64,000 bases of DNA from Anaerolineaceae bacterium (GCA_020350285.1 CP070708.1:3301970-3365969), one strand, 5' to 3'; shown: positions 11,326 through 21,233, counted from the stretch's first letter. The notes: generated from the letters alone by a model not told the origin. A program made the numbers and translations.

Positions 11326-12129
11326 TCAGGCTGCTTGGGTAATCAGCCTGCCCTCATCAGGTGACTGGGTGAGTCGTTGCCACATATTGGGCCACAAGAA
11401 CAGCACGACGAGCACCAGACTGAAGATCGGGCCCAGGGAGAACATCGAGAATCTCCCCAAGTTGATGGTTGTAATCACTCCGAGCGGGATGCCCACGACC
11501 AACTCCAAAACTCCAGCTGTGAGTCCGAGGACCCTCATCCATTCCTTAGGGCGAAGCAATATACCCACCGCAACCACACCCCATCCGATGAAAGCCACCC
11601 AATTCAACCGCTGCACTGCCACGAAAATGTGCGATCCAATCGTGATGATCCGACTCCAGCTGGCAACCCCATTCATAAAACAAAAGATGAAAGCCATGCC
11701 GGTGACTAAACCAAGTAATGTGCGGTTCCATGATAATCCCCCCACAACTTTCATCAAGAGGAAATAAAGGATTAGATTGGGCCAAAAGATGATGAAGTAG
11801 ACAGGAGGCATACCCGCAGCCATGAAGGGCACGTTGATGAACCAACTGCCCTGCAATGCCAACACATTCGCGAGCGCGGCCACAGGAAAAGCCCAACCTG
11901 CAGCGGTGAAAAAGCCATAGGCGCTTACGGCATAAAGCACTCCGGCAAGGATGCCAAAGTCCGAGAGAGCAGGCATGAGATACTTTAGCAGGATTTCACA
12001 GCCCGGCTCAGCGGCCTCCGCGGTCAACGCCGGCGAGTACCAATTGAGGAATATGAGGTAAGTGCCAACGATACCGAGCACGGCACCGATCAGGGTTAGC
12101 AATATGCCCAAACGATTCTTGGCTTTCAT
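11326..12129 (-). CDS. Integral membrane protein, unknown function
   Basis: 267 aa with about 7-8 hydrophobic segments. Strong GGAGGTG RBS upstream of the ATG at 12129. Confidence 0.6.
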   Translation of the reverse strand: MKAKNRLGILLTLIGAVLGIVGTYLIFLNWYSPALTAEAAEPGCEILLKYLMPALSDFGILAGVLYAVSAYGFFTAAGWAFPVAALANVLALQGSWFINVPFMAAGMPPVYFIIFWPNLILYFLLMKVVGGLSWNRTLLGLVTGMAFIFCFMNGVASWSRIITIGSHIFVAVQRLNWVAFIGWGVVAVGILLRPKEWMRVLGLTAGVLELVVGIPLGVITTINLGRFSMFSLGPIFSLVLVVLFLWPNMWQRLTQSPDEGRLITQAA

Positions 12130-12408: not shown

Positions 12409-13083
12409 TTGAATTCCCTCACGAAACTCCTTCCCGTCCACCCCATCTTTAAACACTTATCTGAAACGACTCTAGATGAACTTGCACGAGGCGCGATCAA
12501 AAAGACATACACATCCCAGGAAATCATCGTTTACCAAGGTGACATATGGCCGTATTTGTTTTACCTTCCTGAAGGGGAAATCAAAGCGGTGAAGCAATCA
12601 CCGGAGGGACGCACATTTACCGCAACCACGCTGAAACCCGGTGATATCTTTTGGGGACTTTCTTTCTTTATCGAGGACACACCAATGCCGGTCTACCTCC
12701 AGGCAAACCTGGATTCCACCATCTACATCTGGAACCGGGAAGATCTCAAACCTATTATTGAAGAAAACGGGGTCATGGCCTGGAAACTTTGTCAGACGAT
12801 GATCAAGCGAATGCAATTAGCGAGCGGAATTGTGGAGGATCTCGCCTTCCATCCTGTCATGAGGCGATTGGCAGGCTTGCTTCTAGACATCTTTGGTGAT
12901 GCAGAAGATGAGTTCATGGCCCGGGATCTAACACTCGAGGATATGGCTTCGTATATCGGCACGACCCGAGAGATGGTGTGCCGTCACTTATACCGTTTCG
13001 CTGAAGAGGGGGCCATTGAGATACGCCGAACCGAACTCCGAATTACAGACCGAGAATTCCTAGAAATGCAACTTCGAAAGTGA
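12409..13083 (+). CDS. Crp/Fnr-family transcriptional regulator
   Basis: 224 aa with an N-terminal cNMP-binding-like beta roll and a C-terminal HTH (LEDMASYIGTTREMVCRHLYRF). TTG start preceded by AAGGAG. Confidence 0.85.
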   Translation: MNSLTKLLPVHPIFKHLSETTLDELARGAIKKTYTSQEIIVYQGDIWPYLFYLPEGEIKAVKQSPEGRTFTATTLKPGDIFWGLSFFIEDTPMPVYLQANLDSTIYIWNREDLKPIIEENGVMAWKLCQTMIKRMQLASGIVEDLAFHPVMRRLAGLLLDIFGDAEDEFMARDLTLEDMASYIGTTREMVCRHLYRFAEEGAIEIRRTELRITDREFLEMQLRK

Positions 13084-13162: not shown

Positions 13163-14266
13163 CTACCTATCCATCCTTCTGACTTTCCAGACGACCACAG
13201 AGAGCAACAAGATGGCAGCCCCTAGCATGATCCCAAGGTTTGGGAGCAGAATGTTTAAAGACGCCAAATTTGAGAACGAAACCTGGATCACATTCGACAT
13301 AGCCACTGTAGGAAACCAAGCTACGAGCGCCTTAACGATGGGTGGCCAACTCGATCCTACAAACTGTTTCAGGAACACCGAGGCGAGCAGGCTCAAAATA
13401 ACCAAACTGACCCACAGATTTAATGTCCCTGGATTCTCAAATATGGTCCCTAGCAACAATCCCACTGCAACTGCGAAGAGCGAACCACAAATGACCGCCA
13501 GGAAGGCTATTCCCCACTGGTTGAACATCGAAAGATTGAGGGCAAAAACAACGGCAGCAGCTGTCAAGCAATAAAATGAGCCCGCGATGGCTTTTCCAAC
13601 CACCATTTGCCCATAGCTTGCAGGTGAAACAAGGAGAGCTTCCATCGTATGCTTCTCTTTTTCCTCAAGCATGAGATACGGAACCAGGAAGACACCGATG
13701 ATATTGATCGCTAAAACCAGCGTTAATGAAATCATGGTCAGTTGTCCATCTGAATCGGGGTTGGGGTAAACCCGGTTGTCCGTGTAATCGATGTGGACAG
13801 GCACTCCAACCAGCTCGCCAAGTTGGCCCTCAAAGAATTCCACCAGTTTGATCACATCTGAGGATTTCGCCCAATATGCTGCAAAACCATCGATATCCAT
13901 TTGCCCTTCAGTTTGCACATTTTGACGAAGATCTGCTGGAAAGACCAAGCCGAGTTGCGTTTCACTGGACTCCGTAAGGATCTTTTCCATCATCCCTTGG
14001 GAGGTCACTTCGCGCAATCTTAAGTCTTTCATCTTCGCCAGCTCATCGATTAAGCCCGACGCCCCTACATCATAGATCACTGCTGTAGGTGTTGGCTTAA
14101 TGCGTAAAAGAAAAGGAAGTGCTTGACTTGAAAGCATCACCATGCCGATCCCAAGCATGATCGAAATGGTGGTTTTGTTCTTGATCGCATCCACGATATC
14201 CTTGGCTGCGATTGCCCAGATGATTCGGACACTTTCACCCCATCTGCTACGAAGTATGCTTTTCAT
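13163..14266 (-). CDS. ABC-2 type (NatB-like) transporter permease
   Basis: 367 aa. One N-terminal TM segment, a ~150-aa extracytoplasmic loop, then 5 TM segments. Paralogous to the product of 14373-15461 (shared IIWAI.AKDIVD..KNKTT and ALLVSPAS). Confidence 0.75.
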   Translation of the reverse strand: MKSILRSRWGESVRIIWAIAAKDIVDAIKNKTTISIMLGIGMVMLSSQALPFLLRIKPTPTAVIYDVGASGLIDELAKMKDLRLREVTSQGMMEKILTESSETQLGLVFPADLRQNVQTEGQMDIDGFAAYWAKSSDVIKLVEFFEGQLGELVGVPVHIDYTDNRVYPNPDSDGQLTMISLTLVLAINIIGVFLVPYLMLEEKEKHTMEALLVSPASYGQMVVGKAIAGSFYCLTAAAVVFALNLSMFNQWGIAFLAVICGSLFAVAVGLLLGTIFENPGTLNLWVSLVILSLLASVFLKQFVGSSWPPIVKALVAWFPTVAMSNVIQVSFSNLASLNILLPNLGIMLGAAILLLSVVVWKVRRMDR

Positions 14267-14372
14267 TGTTATCTCACCTACATAACAGTTTTTACTTCAA
14301 TCTCCGACTATGAGTTGGAGGCTGATCGTTTGTCCATAGACAATGCTTGACGGGATAGCTAAAGACTCACCA

Positions 14373-15461
14373 TCAGCGATCCGATCGGCGCAGAACCCGC
14401 ACGACCAAAGCGAAGACCAATACGGCACAACAAGCCACCAATAAGAGTTGTGGCCCAAATTGCGACAACGGTGCCTGAGCTGAAAACGAAACACGAAAGA
14501 CCTTGTCCAGTGCTACAGTTGGAATCCATGAAAAAATGTCAATCAGGGTCTTTGGGAGGATAGCTGACATAATGGGCAGGAAAAGCGGCAGCAGCAAAGG
14601 GATGAAGATCATAAACCCCCACAACATTACCTGCTGTCGAACTTCGAAGATACTTCCCAACAGAATACCCAACCCTACTGTAAAGAACGAACCAACGATG
14701 ACCCCCAAGATGACCAACCACCAGTGAGTGATGATTGAACTGTTGAGGGCAAGGACGACTACAGCTCCTAGTAAACAATAGAGCAGTCCGGTCAGGAACT
14801 TTGCCATAACCACCTGTCCACTGCTTGCAGGTGAAACCAGTAGTGCATCAATGGCTTTGGTTTGTTTTTCCTCGAACATTAAGTTCACCGTGAATGAGAT
14901 ACCGATCATGGTGATCACGATGACAAGTGCAAGGGAGACCAAAAAGGCTAAACCCAGAGAGTCTGGCTCGGTGTATACAATATTGCCCTCGATATGGATG
15001 CGGATCGGATGTCCTACGATTTCGCTGATCTCCCCCTCATAAACAGTCTTGAGTTCCTCTGCATCCGACTCACTGACCCAGTGAAGGATATATCCTTCTA
15101 CCTCTGGCGTTGCTGAACCCGTCAATTCTTGATCGAGATCTGGGGGAATCACCAAGGCTAACGCCGGAGTATCCTCCTCCGTGAGAAATCTCTCCATCCT
15201 CTCTCGAGAAGAAAACTCAACGAGATTGAATTCGGTACTTTCTTCCAGCATCGCTACGATCGAGGATCCTCCTTGGTCATAGACAATCAAGTTAGGCAAC
15301 GCGCCCCCAGAATCCAACATAGGGAGAAATTTATAAATCGCTGCCACAAAGAGAGTCGTTAAGATCGTACTCAGTGTCGTCTTATTCTTGAGCCCGTCAA
15401 CGATATCCTTGGCCGTGATCGCCCAGATGATACGTAAGCTTTGACGAATATTTGTGTTCAT
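14373..15461 (-). CDS. ABC-2 type (NatB-like) transporter permease, paralog
   Basis: 362 aa with the same topology and shared motifs as the product of 13163-14266. Confidence 0.75.
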   Translation of the reverse strand: MNTNIRQSLRIIWAITAKDIVDGLKNKTTLSTILTTLFVAAIYKFLPMLDSGGALPNLIVYDQGGSSIVAMLEESTEFNLVEFSSRERMERFLTEEDTPALALVIPPDLDQELTGSATPEVEGYILHWVSESDAEELKTVYEGEISEIVGHPIRIHIEGNIVYTEPDSLGLAFLVSLALVIVITMIGISFTVNLMFEEKQTKAIDALLVSPASSGQVVMAKFLTGLLYCLLGAVVVLALNSSIITHWWLVILGVIVGSFFTVGLGILLGSIFEVRQQVMLWGFMIFIPLLLPLFLPIMSAILPKTLIDIFSWIPTVALDKVFRVSFSAQAPLSQFGPQLLLVACCAVLVFALVVRVLRRSDR

Positions 15462-15496
15462 GATTCGAAGCTCCCAATTTCAAGGTTCATGATGGT

Positions 15497-16078
15497 CTAT
15501 GTTGCCACCACGCACGCTGCAGCAACTGCAGCGGCAGCATCCTGAATATTCATGTAAGCGAGGTACCAGCCTATGAGGATCAAGAGCGAAAGCTCTGGCA
15601 AGGATATTACACCCATTCGCAACTTTACCTCTGCTTCATGTTTGAAACAACGCATCCAGTCATGGATCTCTATTAGCACGACATCGTTTTTATCGGCAAA
15701 CGCCCAGGAATTTGAGAAGACTTTCGTCCTGAACCATTGGTATTCACGCCCAATAACCAGCGAAAGCATACCATCACCCAACCAGTTGCGAACGAAACTT
15801 CCCACTCTGACTCTGGAGCTTATATCCGTCACAACAACCTTATCCCTGAAGAAACCTAAGCGATCGATGAGCCATTTACCATCAGCACAGATGGCTACAG
15901 CTCGATCAGAGAGCCACTTCGGCCAGTAGAGCCTTCCCACCAGATCATCTCCCGCACGGAGCTCGAATTCACGGGCGCCAAATGCGACCTGCTTCCACAT
16001 CAATTGGCGATAATCCACGGATCTAAGCTCTCGCATGACATCCCTCGGAGTATCTTCCTTACGCTTACTCATCTTCAA
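15497..16078 (-). CDS. Hypothetical protein with a C-terminal TM anchor, embedded in the ABC operon
   Basis: 193 aa. Its TTG start overlaps the upstream ATPase stop (TTGA); an alternative ATG lies at 16072. The soluble part looks beta-rich, and the C-terminal segment LLILIGWYLAYM is hydrophobic. No family recognised. Confidence 0.5.
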   Translation of the reverse strand: MKMSKRKEDTPRDVMRELRSVDYRQLMWKQVAFGAREFELRAGDDLVGRLYWPKWLSDRAVAICADGKWLIDRLGFFRDKVVVTDISSRVRVGSFVRNWLGDGMLSLVIGREYQWFRTKVFSNSWAFADKNDVVLIEIHDWMRCFKHEAEVKLRMGVISLPELSLLILIGWYLAYMNIQDAAAAVAAACVVAT

Positions 16079-16812
16079 CTCCCTCGATAAAGCGATCTTC
16101 CCGTGAGTTTAATGAAGACATCTTCTAGCGTGATACTCTGACCGTCTCCTTGTTGTTTTTTCAATCCTTCGGGGGTATCCAACGCCACGATGTGTCCCTG
16201 ATCGATGATCGCCACGCGATCACTCAAACGATCCGCCTCTTCCATATAGTGGGTGGTCAAGAACACTGTCACGCCCTCTTGCGCTAATTCTGCGATGATT
16301 GCCCGGATGTCTCGGGCCACACCTGGATCGAGGCCACGAGTGGGTTCATCTAAGAATAAAACCTTCGGCTCGTGGAGGAGCCCCCGTGCAATAAGCAAGC
16401 GCTGCTTCATGCCATTGGAATAGGTCTTGATCTTATCCCGCTCCCGACCTGTGAGTCCGACTTGAGTCAGCACTCTATCTACACGCATTTTATCGACACC
16501 ATACAACCGAGCATAGAAGACGAGGTTGTCTCGTGCTGATAAACGCTCATAAACATTCTGGTACTCAAACACTACCCCAATTTGCGGTTTGAGTTCCTGA
16601 CGTTCCTCGACCACATCGCAGCCAACCACCTGGGCTTTCCCTGATGTCGGTCTTAGTTGTCCTGTGAGCATTTTTATTGTCGTCGTCTTGCCAGCGCCGT
16701 TTGGACCCAAGAAGCCGAAGATTTCGCCCGGCTCAACAACAAAGCTGATCTTGTCTACCGCACATAGGCCGTTGAAATTTCGAGTCAGGTCCATAGCTTC
16801 AATCGCATTCAT
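16075..16812 (-). CDS. ABC transporter ATP-binding protein (canonical NBD)
   Basis: Walker A GPNGAGKTTT, Q-loop FEYQNV, signature YSNGMKQR, Walker B LFLDEPTRGLD and H-loop LTTHY are all present. The start was trimmed to the ATG at 16812 (MNAIEAMDL). Confidence 0.9.
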   Translation of the reverse strand: MNAIEAMDLTRNFNGLCAVDKISFVVEPGEIFGFLGPNGAGKTTTIKMLTGQLRPTSGKAQVVGCDVVEERQELKPQIGVVFEYQNVYERLSARDNLVFYARLYGVDKMRVDRVLTQVGLTGRERDKIKTYSNGMKQRLLIARGLLHEPKVLFLDEPTRGLDPGVARDIRAIIAELAQEGVTVFLTTHYMEEADRLSDRVAIIDQGHIVALDTPEGLKKQQGDGQSITLEDVFIKLTGRSLYRGS

Positions 16813-16831
16813 CTGCAATCTCCTAAAATTA

Positions 16832-17041
16832 CTAGGGTTGTTTACTTCGCTTATACAGGTGCTCCCCAATAGCTACTCCGATAGAGATTCCAATCGCAGG
16901 ACCGACGCCTATCAAACCAGGGTTATCGGTCACAATCCACAACGCAATACCGATTGGGGCGAACATGGCCATACCGAGTGCCATCCCCTTGCCCATGCAG
17001 CGTTCCTTTTCTTTCGTCGGATCGTTCGTTTGCTGAGACAT
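16832..17041 (-). CDS. Small glycine-zipper membrane protein
   Basis: 69 aa containing GMALGMAMFAPIGIALW...GLIGVGPAIGISIGVAIG. Strong AAGGAG RBS. Lies inside the operon. Confidence 0.5.
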   Translation of the reverse strand: MSQQTNDPTKEKERCMGKGMALGMAMFAPIGIALWIVTDNPGLIGVGPAIGISIGVAIGEHLYKRSKQP

Positions 17042-17200
17042 GTCTACTCCTTTCTATCCAATCTTGTTGGGCTCAGTACGAATTTCTGATTGCACTATAT
17101 AAAAAAGAAAACGTCGCTGCAATAAAAAAGCGCTGAACGGCGCATCTAGGAGGATGAATGGATGTTTTTGGGGGTCGAAAGGAACAGTTTTCTTGAGGTA

Positions 17201-18193
17201 TTAATAACCTAAAAGGTCACGTAACTCACCTGCGGCGGATTTGCTCAGAGGTATAAGTGTGCCCTCTGGATCATCCATCCGAAGGCTGAATGTGTTGCGC
17301 GTGAAGGGGATCACCTCGGTAACATGCTGAAGGTTCACCAGATATCCGCGATGGGCACGGAAAAATCCCCTTCCTGAAAGACGTTCCTCAAGCTCCGCAA
17401 GCGTAAACTGAGTCGGAAGCCGAGCCTCGGTTGTTTGGACGAACGCCCTTCCTTCTTCTGCATCGGCGAACAAGATATCAGCAGGATTTACCAGCGCCAC
17501 CCTACCCTCAAGCCGGACAGGGATTTTGAACGGAAGCTCCGCCTCGCGTTCTTCTTTCGGACTGTAGGTCTCCATAATTCGACCATTGGCTAGAACATGA
17601 ATCGTATCGCAAAGCGTTGTGAGATTGGTGTTGTCCTCCGCCAGAATGAGTACCGTGACCTCATCCTCAGCCAATTGAGTTATCAAGTCACTCAACAAAG
17701 ATATCGATGCTTCATCACATCTCGCAAAAGGCTCCATGAGAATGAGGTTCGAGGGTTCATGTAAGAGAGCGCGGCCGAAGGCAAAACGCCGCGCGAGTCC
17801 TGTGGGGATTTTATCCAGCTTCGCATTCGCATGATCCGCTAGACCCACCTGAACCAGAACCCGCTCAGCTCGTGACTTTGGAAGACCCCGAATCCTGCAA
17901 TGAAAGGTCAAATTCGCTAGCGGAGAGCGATGTACATAAAGGCTATCGTCGTAAAAGAGGACGCCAACTTGATGGCTGAAATCATCCCGATCTGTTATCG
18001 GATCCGAGTCACCAAGACGCACAGTACCAACGGTTGGCCGCGCATTTCCGATGAGTAGATCCAACAATTCTCCTTTGCCACTACCAGCCGGACCAACAAG
18101 GGCGACAACCTCTCCCGGTTCAACTCGCAGATGATCAATATCAACGACCGTATTCTGATCTATCACCTTCTGCAACTTGTCAACTTCAATCAT
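17201..18193 (-). CDS. Degenerate ABC NBD fused to a LytTR DNA-binding domain
   Basis: The N-terminal ~210 aa are ABC-NBD-like but with altered motifs: GPAGSGKG, LFYDDS, IPTGLARR, LILMEP, LAEDN. The C-terminal ~100 aa have LytTR hallmarks (ILFADAEE...FFRAHRGYLVNLQHV). Confidence 0.8.
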   Translation of the reverse strand: MIEVDKLQKVIDQNTVVDIDHLRVEPGEVVALVGPAGSGKGELLDLLIGNARPTVGTVRLGDSDPITDRDDFSHQVGVLFYDDSLYVHRSPLANLTFHCRIRGLPKSRAERVLVQVGLADHANAKLDKIPTGLARRFAFGRALLHEPSNLILMEPFARCDEASISLLSDLITQLAEDEVTVLILAEDNTNLTTLCDTIHVLANGRIMETYSPKEEREAELPFKIPVRLEGRVALVNPADILFADAEEGRAFVQTTEARLPTQFTLAELEERLSGRGFFRAHRGYLVNLQHVTEVIPFTRNTFSLRMDDPEGTLIPLSKSAAGELRDLLGY

Positions 18194-18376
18194 CGTATGT
18201 TTAACTCAGGTAGAGATGATTCGGAGATTAAAGATTCAATCCGCCGTGATTCTAGCATACTAGGAATAAGAAACACTCATAAATATGATTTGTTCGTCTG
18301 TAGGGAATATCTCAAGGAGTTCGGCCCATCATTTAAGACTTTCTCTTACACGAAGAAATAAATAGTTTGAAGTTGA

Positions 18377-19615
18377 TTATTTCACTGGTTCAAGGGTCGC
18401 TTCTTCTTGTTTATCCGGAAGTTTAAATTTCAACCACGTTGGGATCACTGTGAGGATGGAGACCGCAGCAGTGATGGAGAAGGGCAGACGTGGGCTGAAG
18501 CGCTCCCAAAGCTGAGCGCCGATCCATGGCCCAGGCAATGAAATGAGTCCAATACTGCTCTGGAATAATCCGCTGAAGGTACCTAGCATCTTCTGTGGAA
18601 CCACTTTTGTAATCAAGGACATGTATGCCGGGCTCAAGAGACCCACGCCGATCCCAAAGACCATCCATGCGATGATAAACCCAGTGTAGGCGTAAACCTG
18701 CAGGAAGATCATATACCCCAGGAACACCAGGCTGAAACCTATCGAGATGGGCACACGTTCTCCGTACCTGTCCGAAATACGTCCGGAAAGCATCGGGGTG
18801 AACATCATGGCTCCGGAAAAGACAGAACCAAGTAACCCGATTTGTTCAAAAGAAAGCCCTGCGATCTGTTGCAAGTAGAGGGGTTGCAGCTCGCCTGAGA
18901 GACGGAAGGCGATGTCGCGCACACCGTCGGTGATCAGGATCCAGGTGATCACCCCACCCCCGACAAGCATACCGACCATGGTTTTGATGCTTGTTCGTAG
19001 CGAATCCATTGTAAGGCGTTGCGGGGGAGCCTCTTCAGGAGAACGCATGGTGGTGGCCATCCAGATACGCAAGACAGCTGCAACGGCGTAGAGGATCGCG
19101 GAGACAAACAACATCAACTTGAAACCGTATGCACCAGCAAGAAATCCACCCAAAGGAGGTCCAAGCACGCCCGTAATCTGGTAAATGGTATCGGTGATGC
19201 CAAACACCCTCCCTCGGTGTTCCTCGGCTGAGTTCTCTGCGATGAAAGCCCCAAAACTGGGACCGACTAGTGCATAAGGGAAGCGGCCCACCACAAGAGC
19301 TACCAGCATCCACTGCCAGGTGGGGGCGAGCAGCATGGCGATGTACCCGATAACACCTCCGATGCTGCCGATCGCGATGGCACGCAACCGTCCGATCGAA
19401 TCCGATATCCACCCACCGAAGATTTGCAGGATGAACATCATTAAAGACATGAGGGTGAACACGATGCCCACCTGACCGACGCTAGCTCCCAAGTCAGTGA
19501 GGTAAATGGGCAACAAAATGGGGAACATCATACCGGCGATGTTCGCCAGGACCATGGCGAACATGAACCAACGCATCAGAGGGGTAAGCATGGGTTGTTT
19601 GTCTGATGTTGTCAT
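18377..19615 (-). CDS. MFS transporter
   Basis: 412 aa with 12 predicted TM segments and the MFS loop motif GWISDSIGRLR between TM2 and TM3. Confidence 0.85.
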   Translation of the reverse strand: MTTSDKQPMLTPLMRWFMFAMVLANIAGMMFPILLPIYLTDLGASVGQVGIVFTLMSLMMFILQIFGGWISDSIGRLRAIAIGSIGGVIGYIAMLLAPTWQWMLVALVVGRFPYALVGPSFGAFIAENSAEEHRGRVFGITDTIYQITGVLGPPLGGFLAGAYGFKLMLFVSAILYAVAAVLRIWMATTMRSPEEAPPQRLTMDSLRTSIKTMVGMLVGGGVITWILITDGVRDIAFRLSGELQPLYLQQIAGLSFEQIGLLGSVFSGAMMFTPMLSGRISDRYGERVPISIGFSLVFLGYMIFLQVYAYTGFIIAWMVFGIGVGLLSPAYMSLITKVVPQKMLGTFSGLFQSSIGLISLPGPWIGAQLWERFSPRLPFSITAAVSILTVIPTWLKFKLPDKQEEATLEPVK

Positions 19616-19859: not shown

Positions 19860-21233
19860 CTACGAAGGTGGTAATAGCACTGCGTCGATGACATGGATCA
19901 CGCCGTTGGCGGCTTCGATGTCGGTAATGATAACTTCCGCATCCCCGATCATCACTTTACCACTATCGATCATAATCCCTGCACTCTCACCAAGCAAAGT
20001 GGCGACCAACTCACCATCCAGTCCAAGCACATCGGCTGCCATGACTTTCCCTTCGATGACATGGTAGAGAAGGATATCGGTTAATGCGGGGATATCCGCC
20101 AATAGCGCTTCGATGGTTCCCTCAGGCAAAGCTGCGAAAGCATCATCCGTAGGAGCAAAAACGGTCAATGGACCATCTCCTTTGAGCGCCTCGACAAGCC
20201 CGGCTGCCTGCACGGCGGTCACCAAAGTTTCAAAGCGACCGTCCTCGATGGCGATGTCCACAATGTCCCGAGACTCAGGCAGGATCACGGCATCAATGAC
20301 ATGGATCACGCCGTTGGACGCTTCAATGTCGGTGATCAGGACCTGAGCATTATCGATCATGACTTTGCCCATATCGAGTGAAATTTCGACATATTGACCT
20401 TGCAATGTTTGAGCCTGGCTTAGCTCGGCCACCTCAGAAGCCATGACCTTTCCTGCAGCGATATGGTAAAGCAAGATATCGGTCAGTGCGGGGATGTCTT
20501 CGAGCAAAGCTTCGACCGTACCTTCAGGCAGCGCGGCAAAGGCATCATCCGTTGGGGCAAAAACTGTCAACGGACCTTCGCCCTTCAGTGCATCCACCAA
20601 ACCTGCTGCACCAACCGCGGCGACCAAAGTCTCAAATCGTCCATCTTCCGCAGCGATATCGACGATGTCACGACTCTCGGGCAGGATCACGGCATCAATG
20701 ACATGGATGACGCCATTGGAAGCCTCGATATCGGTGAGGATGACTTCGGCATTGTCAACCATGACCTTTCCGCCATCAAGCAAGATATCGACAAATTGTC
20801 CTTGTAGTGTTTGAGCCTGACTCAGCTCGATCACATCAGCCGCCATGACCTTGCCTGCTAAGACATGGTAAAGCAAGATGTCGGTCAGAGTCGGGATGTC
20901 CTCGAGCAAAGCTTCTACGGTGCCCTCAGGAAGCGCAGAAAAGGCGTCATCCGTGGGAGCAAAAACGGTTAAGGGACCTTCGCCCTTCAAAGCATCCACC
21001 AACCCAGCGGCCTGTACTGCCGCCACTAAAGTCTGGAAACGACCATCGGCCACCGCGATGTCAACGATGTCCTGCGGTTCTGGTGCGACCATCTCGGTTG
21101 GCTCAGGGACTGCGGTGGGCTCAGGCATTGCCGTTGGCTCGGGGGCTTCCGTCGCGACCGGAGTCGCAGCCGAACAAGCCGCCAAGACCATGGATAATGC
21201 AAGCAACAAACCAACTGTGTAACGGGACTTCAT
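19860..21233 (-). CDS. Lipoprotein with three tandem fasciclin (FAS1) domains
   Basis: Signal peptide with lipobox LAAC, a PEPT-rich linker, then three ~134-aa near-identical units ([43 protein letters not shown]...[12 protein letters not shown]). Confidence 0.88.

Follow-up and report, generated by a model that had tools for sequence, protein, structure and literature searches.

The first gene of a six-gene, same-strand array in the window, by which the whole analysed stretch of 64,000 nucleotides from an Anaerolineaceae bacterium is meant, encodes a 330-aa protein that is probably a one-component LytTR activator of the adjacent exporter. Its input domain would be a degenerate ABC nucleotide-binding domain (pseudo-NBD), and the control would be linked to the transporter. 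As judged from the sequence, the likely operator lies in the stretch that separates the fusion gene from the exporter genes, not in the region upstream of the fusion gene; this assignment is new here. The six ORFs are present at 13163-18193, where the first-pass annotation had placed them (Table 1). The same annotation described a tight array, and the genes are indeed there, but the tightness is not uniform: the fusion gene is followed by a 159-bp gap (17042-17200) that contains a promoter-like element.

Table 1. Features of the fusion gene, the exporter genes and the adjoining regulatory regions (positions counted from the first letter of the window)
Feature	Coordinates	Strand	Remarks
GATTC x3, 15-nt spacing	18218..18252	+	exact matches at 18218, 18233, 18248
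Extended -10 of fusion gene, TGCTAGAAT	18249..18257	-	hexamer TAGAAT at 18254..18249
Fusion gene, full ORF	18193..17201	-	330 aa, ABC NBD fold + C-terminal LytTR
Pseudo-NBD, residues 1-215	17549..18193	-	PF00005, AF2 and superposition; five degenerate motifs
LytTR domain, residues 221-330 + stop codon	17201..17533	-	PF04397; preceded by flexible linker, residues 216-220
Predicted LytTR box 3 (distal), TGTTCCTTTCGAC	17174..17186	-	PWM 10.6 bits, 21 bp from box 2
Predicted LytTR box 2, ACATCCATTCATC	17153..17165	-	PWM 8.4 bits, 21 bp from box 1
Predicted LytTR box 1 (proximal), TGCGCCGTTCAGC	17132..17144	-	PWM 18.8 bits
Exporter promoter (predicted, regulated)	17094..17122	-	-35 TTGCAG 17122..17117, 17-nt spacer, -10 TATAGT 17099..17094
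Glycine-zipper small membrane protein, 69 aa	16832..17041	-	first cistron past predicted promoter; accessory
Canonical ABC-2-type NBD, 246 aa	16075..16815	-	catalytic motifs all intact
191-aa clade-restricted protein	15497..16072	-	predicted tubby/LURP-one-like beta-barrel, long C-terminal helix; accessory
ABC-2 permease paralog 1 (ABC2_membrane_3)	14373..15461	-	PF12698 E 1.4e-28
ABC-2 permease paralog 2 (ABC2_membrane_3)	13163..14266	-	PF12698 E 3.6e-18

Both domains proposed for the 330-aa product were found above the Pfam cut-offs: ABC_tran (PF00005) matches residues 21-157 (E 4.1e-17, 63.5 bits, cut-off 25), and PF04397 matches residues 231-328 (E 4.7e-21, 75.3 bits, cut-off 22.6; profile positions 2-97 of 98). 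The Pfam comparison gave no Response_reg match in the fusion protein, the N-terminal domain being ABC_tran and not a receiver. The AF2 model of the fusion contains two confident domains with a flexible linker between them. The pseudo-NBD model (pLDDT >90) has the RecA-like plus helical subdomain fold of an ABC NBD, with LptB, TM0544 and ArtP superposed on it at 2.3-2.8 A (~225 columns), and its best family matches, drrA, GldA and NodI, are ABC-2-type NBDs and the same set as those of the cognate NBD. The solved structure nearest to the LytTR half is the LytTR domain 3D6W (E 3e-12).

The pseudo-NBD and the canonical NBD of the operon share 32% identity across 212 aa (MAFFT/BLASTP), and all five motif differences listed by the first-pass annotation were reproduced: Walker A is GPAGSGKG in the pseudo-NBD and GPNGAGKT in the canonical NBD, the Q-loop FYDDS and FEYQN, the signature IPTGLARR and YSNGMKQR, Walker B LILMEP and LFLDEP, and the H-loop LAEDN and LTTHY, respectively. 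The motifs of a catalytically competent ABC ATPase (Walker A, Q-loop, Walker B, H-loop, signature LSGGQ) are all degenerate in the pseudo-NBD. A rigorous alignment might have revealed intact catalytic motifs; instead, their loss proved to be real and family-wide. Motif frequencies were counted over 85 Anaerolineae homologs of the fusion protein. The Ser/Thr of Walker A (GxxGxGK[S/T]) is kept in only 27/85, the aligned Q-loop position is D in 84/85, and the H-loop His position is D or E in 81/85. At the Walker B Asp position V is found in 57/85, with D absent from the eight commonest residues listed and M in the window copy. The signature Ser is replaced by P in 65/85 and the Q by L in 83/85, while the second Gly is retained in 82/85. 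The rest of the domain appears to be under purifying selection, since 97 positions of the non-catalytic scaffold, D-loop D160 among these, are at least 97% conserved. Across 84 Anaerolineae homologs, mean identity is 81% in the LytTR half versus 64% in the NBD half.

It is possible, though not probable, that the pseudo-NBD is an autonomous sensor, either controlled by a nucleotide or small molecule or acting as a constitutive dimeriser, which would bring the LytTR domains to the phased boxes with no contact to the transporter, and that the transporter is merely its regulated target. The backbone GPxGSGK of Walker A is strongly kept in Anaerolineae (G34, P35 and G39 in 100%, K40 in 92%, 78/85), as is E or D at the catalytic-base position (82/85). 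The conserved GPxGSGK hints at retained nucleotide or phosphate binding in this group and, with it, at ligand sensing in which the transporter has no part. D-loop D160 and the signature helix, both at the NBD dimer interface, are invariant, a dimerising domain at the N terminus is a general requirement of LytTR regulators (PMC4005675), and the regulator gene has its own promoter. However, the Walker A loop is destroyed in 10/10 Bacillota and in the majority of 38 diverse cluster representatives, with the operator and synteny unchanged, so nucleotide binding cannot be the family-wide input. The P-loop of the Bacillota relatives is gone and their LytTR half is still conserved. An autonomous sensor would also leave unexplained why the NBD fold always accompanies an ABC-2 exporter.

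The candidate operator consists of three predicted boxes with the core CC[A/G]TTC[A/G]NC and an exact 21-bp period (17186..17132). Box 1 has the top PWM score anywhere in the 64-kb window, and the triplet is the sole phased cluster found there by the PWM scan. The fusion-to-NBD gaps of the family contain at least one site in 74/75 cases and at least two in 67/75, compared with 12% of shuffled gaps containing a site; the PWM was trained on the same gaps that it scored, and training had no influence on the spacing, on how far the boxes lie from the -35 or on the Bacillota check. Box-to-box spacing is 20-21 bp in 76/100, and 77 of the 81 phased pairs in the 1.75 Mb scanned fall in the gap, which makes up 1.3% of that sequence. 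The Bacillota loci, which lay outside the PWM training, have predicted sites of 16-18.8 bits, again with a 21-bp period. The box core equals the AlgR consensus, given by ChIP-seq and footprinting as CCGTTCGTC and CCGTTCATC, and the half-site core of the boxes is essentially AlgR's own (CCGTTCGTC; PMC4787818). The published LytTR rule requires 9-bp direct repeats with 10-13 bp spacers, located 4-11 bp upstream of the -35 (PMC6193735; PMC11347149). The layout of the gap agrees with this rule, and the predicted operator fits it in silico with a 20-21 bp period just upstream of the -35. Two genomes with two paralogous modules (L003, L024) carry the same box core in both, a source of cross-talk that is unexplained.

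Downstream of the boxes, a layout of T-run, TTGCA, N17 and a TATACT-like hexamer can be aligned free of gaps over ~58 loci, and the distance from the end of the proximal box to the -35 is exactly 9 nt in 56/58. The sigma-70 scan missed the exporter promoter because its -35 matches at only 3/6 positions. By analogy, the combination of boxes, weak -35 TTGCAG, 17-nt spacer and good -10 TATAGT strongly indicates the activator-dependent LytTR promoter type. It is rather unlikely that the protein is a repressor, which on the boxes beside the -35 would obstruct RNA polymerase until a signal sets it free. CoxC does repress through three direct repeats (PMC11347149), the number of boxes in the window, and the good -10 with the T-rich upstream tract might function without an activator. 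On the other hand, the CoxC repeats overlap the -35 (PMC11347149), whereas the boxes described here stop 9 nt short of it without overlap (56/58 loci), the position described for LytTR activators and for LRS operons (PMC6193735), and the weakness of the -35 also argues against repression. Box 1 doubles as a short GC hairpin (GCGC-N6-GCGC) followed by TTTTTT, which may be the terminator of the fusion gene transcript. Self-complementarity is far stronger in proximal boxes than in distal boxes, and at least 5 T occur within the next 8 nt in 49/74.

The genes past the gap have the composition of an ABC-2 (NatAB/DrrAB-like) exporter, namely a canonical NBD (PF00005 E 4.6e-34; TIGR01188 drrA 285 bits; 60-93% identity among loci) and PF12698 permeases. 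The two permeases are paralogous, as annotated, with 40% identity (E 8e-86). No equivalog-level NCBIfam match was obtained for the exporter substrate (Na+, drug, peptide). The start of the canonical NBD is most likely ATG 16815, with AGGAG 8 nt upstream, and not TTG 16869. The 69-aa glycine-zipper gene is preceded by AAGGAG 6 nt before its ATG; its product has no Pfam match and has homologs at the matching position in loci L001, L003, L007 and L009. Similar small hydrophobic ORFs occur in ~11/39 long-gap loci, and in most loci the fusion-to-NBD gap is <260 bp, leaving no room for such a gene. The gene annotated as encoding a 193-aa anchored protein exists, but the product is probably 191 aa long, and its C-terminal hydrophobic helix may, according to the AF2 model (pLDDT 86, pTM 0.85), be the core helix of a tubby/LURP-one-like barrel instead of anchoring the protein in a membrane. 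The top Foldseek match of this protein is 1ZXU (E 6e-4); it has no Pfam match and is found in ~8/80 loci, and its 54 homologs are all from Anaerolineae.

The order fusion, canonical NBD and 2-4 ABC2_membrane_3 permeases is found in ~70/80 Chloroflexota loci, and the order fusion, NBD and ABC-2 permease in 3/3 Bacillota loci. A survey of such linkage had been suggested in the first-pass annotation, and it showed the fusion to be strictly linked to an ABC-2 exporter across two phyla. Synteny alone is no proof of physical coupling, because regulators normally adjoin their targets. That the pseudo-NBD is a second NBD subunit of the exporter, forming an asymmetric heterodimer with one degenerate ATP site and carrying LytTR as a secondary add-on, is very improbable, even though the two permeases in the window differ from each other, as do its two NBD-fold proteins, and asymmetric NBD pairs are established in other ABC transporters. 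In the known pairs one ATP site remains consensus. The degenerate subunit would then be expected to bear a consensus signature; the signature of the pseudo-NBD is itself degenerate (Ser to Pro in 65/85), and a heterodimer would therefore have two composite ATP sites that are crippled or non-consensus, which speaks against a productive asymmetric dimer like those already known. Besides, the single permease gene and single canonical NBD gene of the Bacillota modules suffice for a homodimeric transporter, permease copies vary from 1 to 4 across loci with the fusion always single, and a terminator-like element and a promoter part the fusion gene from the transporter genes.

The description of the fusion gene as the regulated head of the operon probably does not hold, as the gene has an extended -10 of its own and the conserved boxes sit downstream of it, before the exporter promoter. 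Over-representation upstream of the fusion genes (78 loci) is confined to words of the TGnTAnnAT type, and AGTATGCTAGAAT is identical in L003, the closest relative; a conserved extended -10 promoter is strongly indicated by this comparison. LytTR-type family boxes occur upstream of the fusion genes in 8/78 loci, which is the chance level. The lack of family boxes upstream and the phased boxes at the exporter promoter suggest that the fusion gene is probably transcribed as a unit of its own. The region 18194-18376, earlier proposed as the DNA target, does contain the GATTC trio, but neither its conservation nor its role as a binding site was borne out: all three copies are changed in L003 with the -10 unchanged, and the trio sits in the 5' UTR with its first copy overlapping the -10 hexamer. 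Despite the three regularly spaced copies and the autoregulation known for LRS-type LytTR regulators (PMC6193735), it is hardly credible that all six genes are autoregulated as one operon through LytTR binding at these repeats, since none of the three copies is intact in L003, the -10 is overlapped by the first of them, the 15-bp period lies outside the 20-22 bp LytTR rule and the family boxes there are at chance level.

Among the closest known systems are the LRS of Streptococcus mutans (HdrRM, BrsRM, SMU_433/434, SMU_1070c/1069c), whose LytTR regulators also lack a receiver domain and whose direct repeats have a ~21 bp period and lie ~10 bp upstream of the -35 (PMC6193735). Control is proposed to act via a membrane protein partner in both, and several LRS operons are linked to ABC transporter genes. 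The LRS regulators, however, are small, single-domain and paired with a dedicated transmembrane inhibitor, whereas the fusion has a pseudo-NBD of 215 aa. The fusion loci appear to share no dedicated inhibitor gene, the small glycine-zipper membrane protein following the fusion in the window and in ~11 loci. LRS regulators autoactivate their own operon, but the predicted boxes of the fusion lie downstream of the regulator gene, which implies no positive feedback in this module; autoregulatory repeats of the LRS type upstream of the regulator gene are at the chance level mentioned above.

AlgR, AgrA, ComE and NatR have the same DNA-binding fold, and phased direct repeats abut the -35. In B. subtilis, NatK-NatR controls natAB, an ABC-2 exporter, as is proposed for the fusion. 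The input of these regulators is a phosphorylated receiver fed by a histidine kinase, whereas the fusion module encodes neither a receiver nor a kinase, the receiver's place being taken by a decayed ABC ATPase domain. The one-component regulators CoxC and RcoM, with MHYT or haem-PAS sensor domains (PMC11347149), likewise combine a sensor and a C-terminal LytTR in one polypeptide and have operators of three direct repeats at 12-13 bp spacing; they differ in having a gas-sensing domain instead of an NBD fold. In MalK, MetN and ModC, a C-terminal beta-rich regulatory domain follows the NBD, in the topological position that LytTR has in the fusion according to full-length Foldseek matches. MalK sequesters MalT and so relays the transporter state to transcription; MalK, however, is a working ATPase acting on a separate transcription factor, whereas the fusion is a dead NBD joined to a DNA-binding domain. 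In BceAB-BceRS, an ABC transporter controls its own transcription through its activity, and such flux sensing may also take place in the fusion module. In the Bce system a histidine kinase, in complex with the permease, passes the signal on to a response regulator; the fusion would do both jobs. No functional study of a pseudo-NBD-LytTR fusion was found in the literature.

We infer that the fusion protein binds DNA, that it activates rather than represses, and that it contacts the transporter. The LytTR domain would bind the three boxes as an oligomer and activate the exporter genes, the predicted promoter driving the small membrane protein, the canonical NBD, the accessory barrel protein and the two permeases. 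The pseudo-NBD would derive from an ABC-2-type NBD and serve as a module for protein-protein interaction; it would not hydrolyse ATP, and the Bacillota relatives would be unable even to bind it. Most likely it mimics the cognate NBD and would in this way contact the permease coupling site or the canonical NBD, so that the state or abundance of the transporter would set the amount of regulator free or dimeric on DNA. Docking of the pseudo-NBD, with transporter state gating DNA binding, is compatible with all the findings. With predicted sites on the exporter promoter and a sensor derived from a dead ATPase, the transporter may itself inform the gene switch of its state.

The 330-aa fusion protein (18193..17201) contains an ABC_tran domain at residues 21-157 (E 4.1e-17) and a LytTR domain at residues 231-328 (E 4.7e-21), as revealed by Pfam, both above the curated cut-offs. 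The first-pass annotation described six ORFs on the minus strand, all of which are present, and its interpretation of the product as an ABC nucleotide-binding domain (NBD) fused to LytTR agrees with these matches. The presence of a canonical NBD two genes downstream of the fusion (PF00005, E 4.6e-34; 285 bits to TIGR01188 drrA) and of two paralogous permeases after the 193-aa ORF (both ABC2_membrane_3, 40% identical) was also confirmed. Alignment of the fusion with the canonical NBD of the operon (32% identity over 212 aa), also by MAFFT, reproduced every motif difference listed earlier.

In 85 Anaerolineae sequences, G34, P35 and G39 of the Walker A backbone never vary and K40 is found in 78/85, while the Mg-coordinating Ser/Thr of this motif occurs in only 27/85. 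The Q-loop Gln position is occupied by Asp in 84 of the 85 sequences. In the signature motif, Pro stands in place of Ser in 65 and Leu is found at the Gln/Met position in 83. Val is present at the Walker B Asp position in 57/85, Asp not being among the eight commonest residues there, and the H-loop His is replaced by Asp or Glu in 81/85. Bacillota fusions have lost the P-loop itself (10/10). GSGKTT and LLLDEP are retained by a few distant representatives, and the H-loop His by none. As judged from the alignments, the motif degeneracy is a trait of the family, not a sequencing accident, and the protein is not a working ABC ATPase. The non-catalytic NBD scaffold is under purifying selection, as 97 positions show conservation of 97% or higher, D-loop D160 and the signature helix among them.

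The AlphaFold2 model, based on a 95-sequence alignment (mean pLDDT 91.3), comprises two confident domains and a disordered linker (residues 216-220). For the NBD half, superposition on LptB, TM0544 and ArtP gives 2.3-2.8 A, and the full-length Foldseek matches are MalK-, CysA- and MetN-type NBDs with a regulatory domain in the equivalent topological place at their C-terminus. The PDB sequence search found no entry spanning both domains; the nearest solved LytTR domain is 3D6W.

Genomic linkage was assessed by a tblastn search with the window's proteins in 80 Chloroflexota loci (labelled within L001-L082) of a species-representative genome collection. In about 70 of the 80 loci the fusion gene is followed on the same strand by a canonical NBD (60-93% identity) and two to four ABC2_membrane_3 permeases, the exceptions being mostly truncated contigs. 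Three Bacillota loci contain a minimal form consisting of the fusion, an NBD (282 aa) and one ABC-2 permease (236 aa). The neighbourhood of the fusion and ABC-2 genes, for which a survey had been suggested, held in both phyla. In silico, a LytTR protein with a dead NBD belongs to a module of fusion, canonical NBD and permease genes kept across two phyla.

The number of permease paralogs per single canonical NBD is two to four in Chloroflexota versus one in Bacillota, with three genes in L001, L005, L007, L011, L024, L031, L043 and L046, and four in L012, L013 and L055. This variable copy number points to repeated duplication of the membrane subunit. Several genomes contain two modules, and paired paralogous modules were found in L003 and L024 (isolate W379), L055 and L056 (isolate W1033), L009 and L047, and L014 and L020.

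The mean identity of the LytTR half is 81% within Anaerolineae versus 64% for the NBD half, and 43% versus 21% in comparison with Bacillota. As the LytTR half is nearly invariant, its DNA site was expected to be conserved across the loci. The gap between the fusion gene and the exporter genes (159 bp in the window, 17042-17200) is enriched in words such as GCCATTCA, CGCCGTTC and TTGTTGCA, found in about 60 of 75 loci versus 10-20 in shuffles. An anchored display of the gaps revealed two to four direct repeats, followed by a T-run, TTGCA, 17 nt and TATACT/TATAGT. With a self-trained 13-mer PWM, TGCGCC[A/G]TTC[A/G]sC, at least one site was found in 74/75 gaps, at least two in 67/75 and at least three in 29/75. 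Consecutive sites are 20 or 21 bp apart in 76/100 cases, with nine more at 40-42 bp, and the proximal site ends exactly 9 nt before a -35-like hexamer in 56/58. Shuffled gaps contained a site in 12% of cases, and only 1/23 pairs was spaced by 19-24 bp. In 1.75 Mb of locus sequence scanned on both strands, 77 of the 81 phased pairs lie inside the gap, which constitutes 1.3% of the sequence, and the three boxes of the window, at an exact 21-bp period, are its only phased cluster in 64 kb. The Bacillota loci, left out of the PWM training, have the same boxes in the same gap with a 21-bp period (sites of 16.0-18.8 bits), including four to five boxes in register in the Paenibacillus gap. Checks that do not depend on the self-trained PWM come from the site spacing, the -35 distance, the Bacillota loci and the scan of whole loci.

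The core of the boxes is the core of the experimentally defined AlgR site, CCGTTCGTC, with the CCGTTCATC footprint (PMC4787818), and the AlgR half-site resembles the present boxes. According to the published rule, LytTR sites are 9-bp direct repeats with 10-13 bp spacers located 4-11 bp upstream of the -35 (PMC6193735; PMC11347149), and the geometry in the gap is the same. These in silico comparisons place a conserved LytTR-type operator in the activator position on the predicted promoter of the adjacent exporter. No promoter emerged from a consensus scan of 16700-18500 for sigma-70 sites and terminators; the scan is blind to the regulated one because the -35 of the latter matches at only 3/6 positions, and that promoter was revealed by comparative alignment. 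A riboswitch or structured leader in the gap was rejected, as no Rfam family matched (E up to 1) and RNA folding gave no significant structure (z = -0.43). The boxes of paralogous modules within one genome have a common CCGTTC core, and cross-talk between their regulators would be either avoided or exploited.

Predicted regulatory sites and neighbouring genes, in window positions
Feature	Position	Strand	Remarks
LytTR box 3 (distal)	17186..17174	-	predicted, 21-bp period
LytTR box 2	17165..17153	-	predicted, 21-bp period
LytTR box 1 (proximal)	17144..17132	-	predicted; top-scoring PWM site in the window
Regulated promoter	TTGCAG 17122..17117, 17 nt, TATAGT 17099..17094	-	predicted, after the boxes
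CRP/FNR-family regulator (cNMP_binding + HTH_Crp_2)	12409-13083	+	convergent to the exporter operon end
267-aa polytopic membrane protein	11326-12129	-	no Pfam match; beyond the CRP/FNR-family gene
MFS_1 transporter gene	18377-19615	-	ends 183 bp upstream of the fusion gene, same strand
457-aa secreted or lipoprotein-like protein	19860-21233	-	three to four near-identical repeats, ~130 aa each

In the window (17124-17144, minus strand) and among L001-L082, the proximal box usually forms an inverted repeat, GCGCC-GTTC-GGCGC or a variant of the CCGCC..GGCGG type, with T5-7 behind it. Such self-complementarity with an adjacent T-run is far commoner in proximal than in distal boxes and is consistent with a terminator of the regulator's transcript overlapping the operator. 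A different subgroup has a box that can instead pair with sequence immediately past the -35 (ACGCCG...CGGCGT or TGCGCC...GGCGCA), behind which lies ATTTCTTTT. It appears that operator, terminator and promoter are laid over one another.

The LytTR target was initially proposed to be located at the operon head, upstream of the fusion gene (18194-18376). The GATTC trio reported there is indeed present at 18218-18252, but it was rejected as a LytTR operator. All three copies are altered in L003, the closest relative (89% protein identity), where AGTATGCTAGAAT is unchanged, and the first copy runs into the -10 hexamer of the promoter that serves the fusion gene itself, the trio lying within the 5' UTR. 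Family boxes occur upstream of fusion genes at chance level (8/78), contrary to the proposed binding, and the only word enriched there is the extended -10 (TGnTAnnAT). Since the trio is not conserved, its 15-bp period is a misfit to the LytTR geometry and the boxes are at chance level, it seems that the regulator is not visibly autoregulated and that the fusion gene is probably transcribed as a unit of its own.

The 69-aa and 193-aa proteins are accessory, being found in about four and eight of the 80 Chloroflexota loci, respectively. The hypothetical 193-aa protein (15497-16072, minus strand) has no family match, agrees at 100% identity with JSV37_14870 of an Anaerolineaceae bacterium MAG, and has 54 homologs, from Anaerolineae only. 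Its AlphaFold2 model (pLDDT 86, pTM 0.85) is a 12-strand beta-barrel with a long C-terminal helix, and in the PDB it matches the LURP-one/tubby-like protein 1ZXU best (E 6e-4), so that its hydrophobic C-terminus may form the core helix of the barrel instead of anchoring the protein in a membrane. The start of this gene overlaps the NBD stop codon, which suggests translational coupling.

Among the 39 loci whose fusion-to-NBD gap is long, about 11 have, as the first cistron behind the regulated promoter, a gene for a small membrane protein of 55-80 aa (16832-17041, minus strand, in the window; also L001, L003, L005, L007, L025, L026, L037, L057 and L063). These glycine-zipper or two-TM proteins belong to at least two sequence families and could be accessory subunits or counterparts of the LRS membrane inhibitor. 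At most loci the gap is too short to hold such a gene.

The CRP/FNR-family and 267-aa genes are syntenic in L003 (86% and 88% identity), not in more distant loci. The MFS gene adjoins the module in L003 and L067 and lies on the opposite strand in L002; it is missing in most loci and is thus probably outside the module. The repeats of the 457-aa protein resemble fasciclin (FAS1) domains by eye.

More than 2800 database relatives of the fusion protein were found, and the best 120 of them all possess both domains and belong to Anaerolineales or Chloroflexota MAGs. A profile search of 1.84 billion cluster representatives yielded many more distant fusions (315-420 aa), with no count of family size possible because ordinary NBDs score highly too. 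A second search found fusions to be common in cultured Bacillota (Cytobacillus, Virgibacillus, Oceanobacillus, Sporosarcina and Paenibacillus). The genome scan relied on clade-specific peptide patterns, so its Chloroflexota-only outcome is no estimate of distribution. The database names are generic, either 'LytTR family transcriptional regulator DNA-binding domain-containing protein' or 'ABC-2 type transport system ATP-binding protein'.

The LytTR protein would activate transcription of the exporter, with the pseudo-NBD as the putative input domain. In Anaerolineae, the conserved P-loop backbone keeps alive the possibility that the pseudo-NBD binds nucleotide or phosphate, but nucleotide binding cannot be the family-wide input, since Bacillota lack the P-loop and retain the operator and synteny. 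Repression in place of activation, for which CoxC provides a precedent, may apply but agrees less well with the box position. A productive asymmetric pair of the fusion and the canonical NBD is unlikely, as the pseudo-NBD signature is degenerate too, leaving both composite sites defective, and the Bacillota modules already supply the needs of a homodimeric transporter. The pseudo-NBD is best seen as a protein-interaction module. It shares its top NCBIfam families with the neighbouring NBD and, on this evidence, descends from the same ABC-2-type NBD lineage; such common descent makes mimicry of the cognate NBD the most economical hypothesis. If so, the pseudo-NBD might dock on the permease or form a pair with the canonical NBD. 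More specifically, and tentatively, the pseudo-NBD might be a decoy subunit that finds the canonical NBD on the ABC-2 permease and either competes or pairs with it there. The occupancy, cycling or abundance of the transporter would then directly determine how much LytTR domain is available to the phased boxes; we consider this possible rather than probable.

LytTR regulators and ABC-2 exporters are both well known. To our knowledge, the route from exporter load to transcription has been worked out in few cases, BceAB-BceS and MalK-MalT among them. The present system is similar to LRS or CoxC-type regulators as a one-component LytTR switch. However, LRS is distinguished by autoregulatory repeats, which the present system does not show, and by a dedicated membrane inhibitor, for which most of its loci offer no space, and, unlike AgrA/AlgR/NatR-type proteins, the present regulator has no receiver domain. 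In Bce-type systems, a chain of transporter, kinase and response regulator operates, which one polypeptide would replace here if the pseudo-NBD is such a decoy. No functional or descriptive study of an ABC-LytTR fusion was found in the open-access literature, an earlier listing of the bare architecture being possible; the first catalogue of LytTR architectures is reportedly that of Nikolskaya and Galperin in 2002. What appears to be new is the assignment of the operator and the extent of the family across phyla.

The analysis, computational throughout, defines a large, generically annotated family (thousands of sequences) spread over two phyla, in which a decayed transporter ATPase would serve as the input domain of a transcription factor predicted to act on the promoter of the matching transporter, a clean example of an enzyme domain turned into a signalling module. 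The predicted operator is concrete and sequence-defined (CC[A/G]TTC boxes with a 21-bp period), and culturable Bacillota hosts exist. If the pseudo-NBD docks on the transporter, this would be the simplest transporter-coupled gene switch known, and if it acts as a decoy, a single polypeptide would constitute a flux-sensing switch conserved from Chloroflexota to Bacillota.
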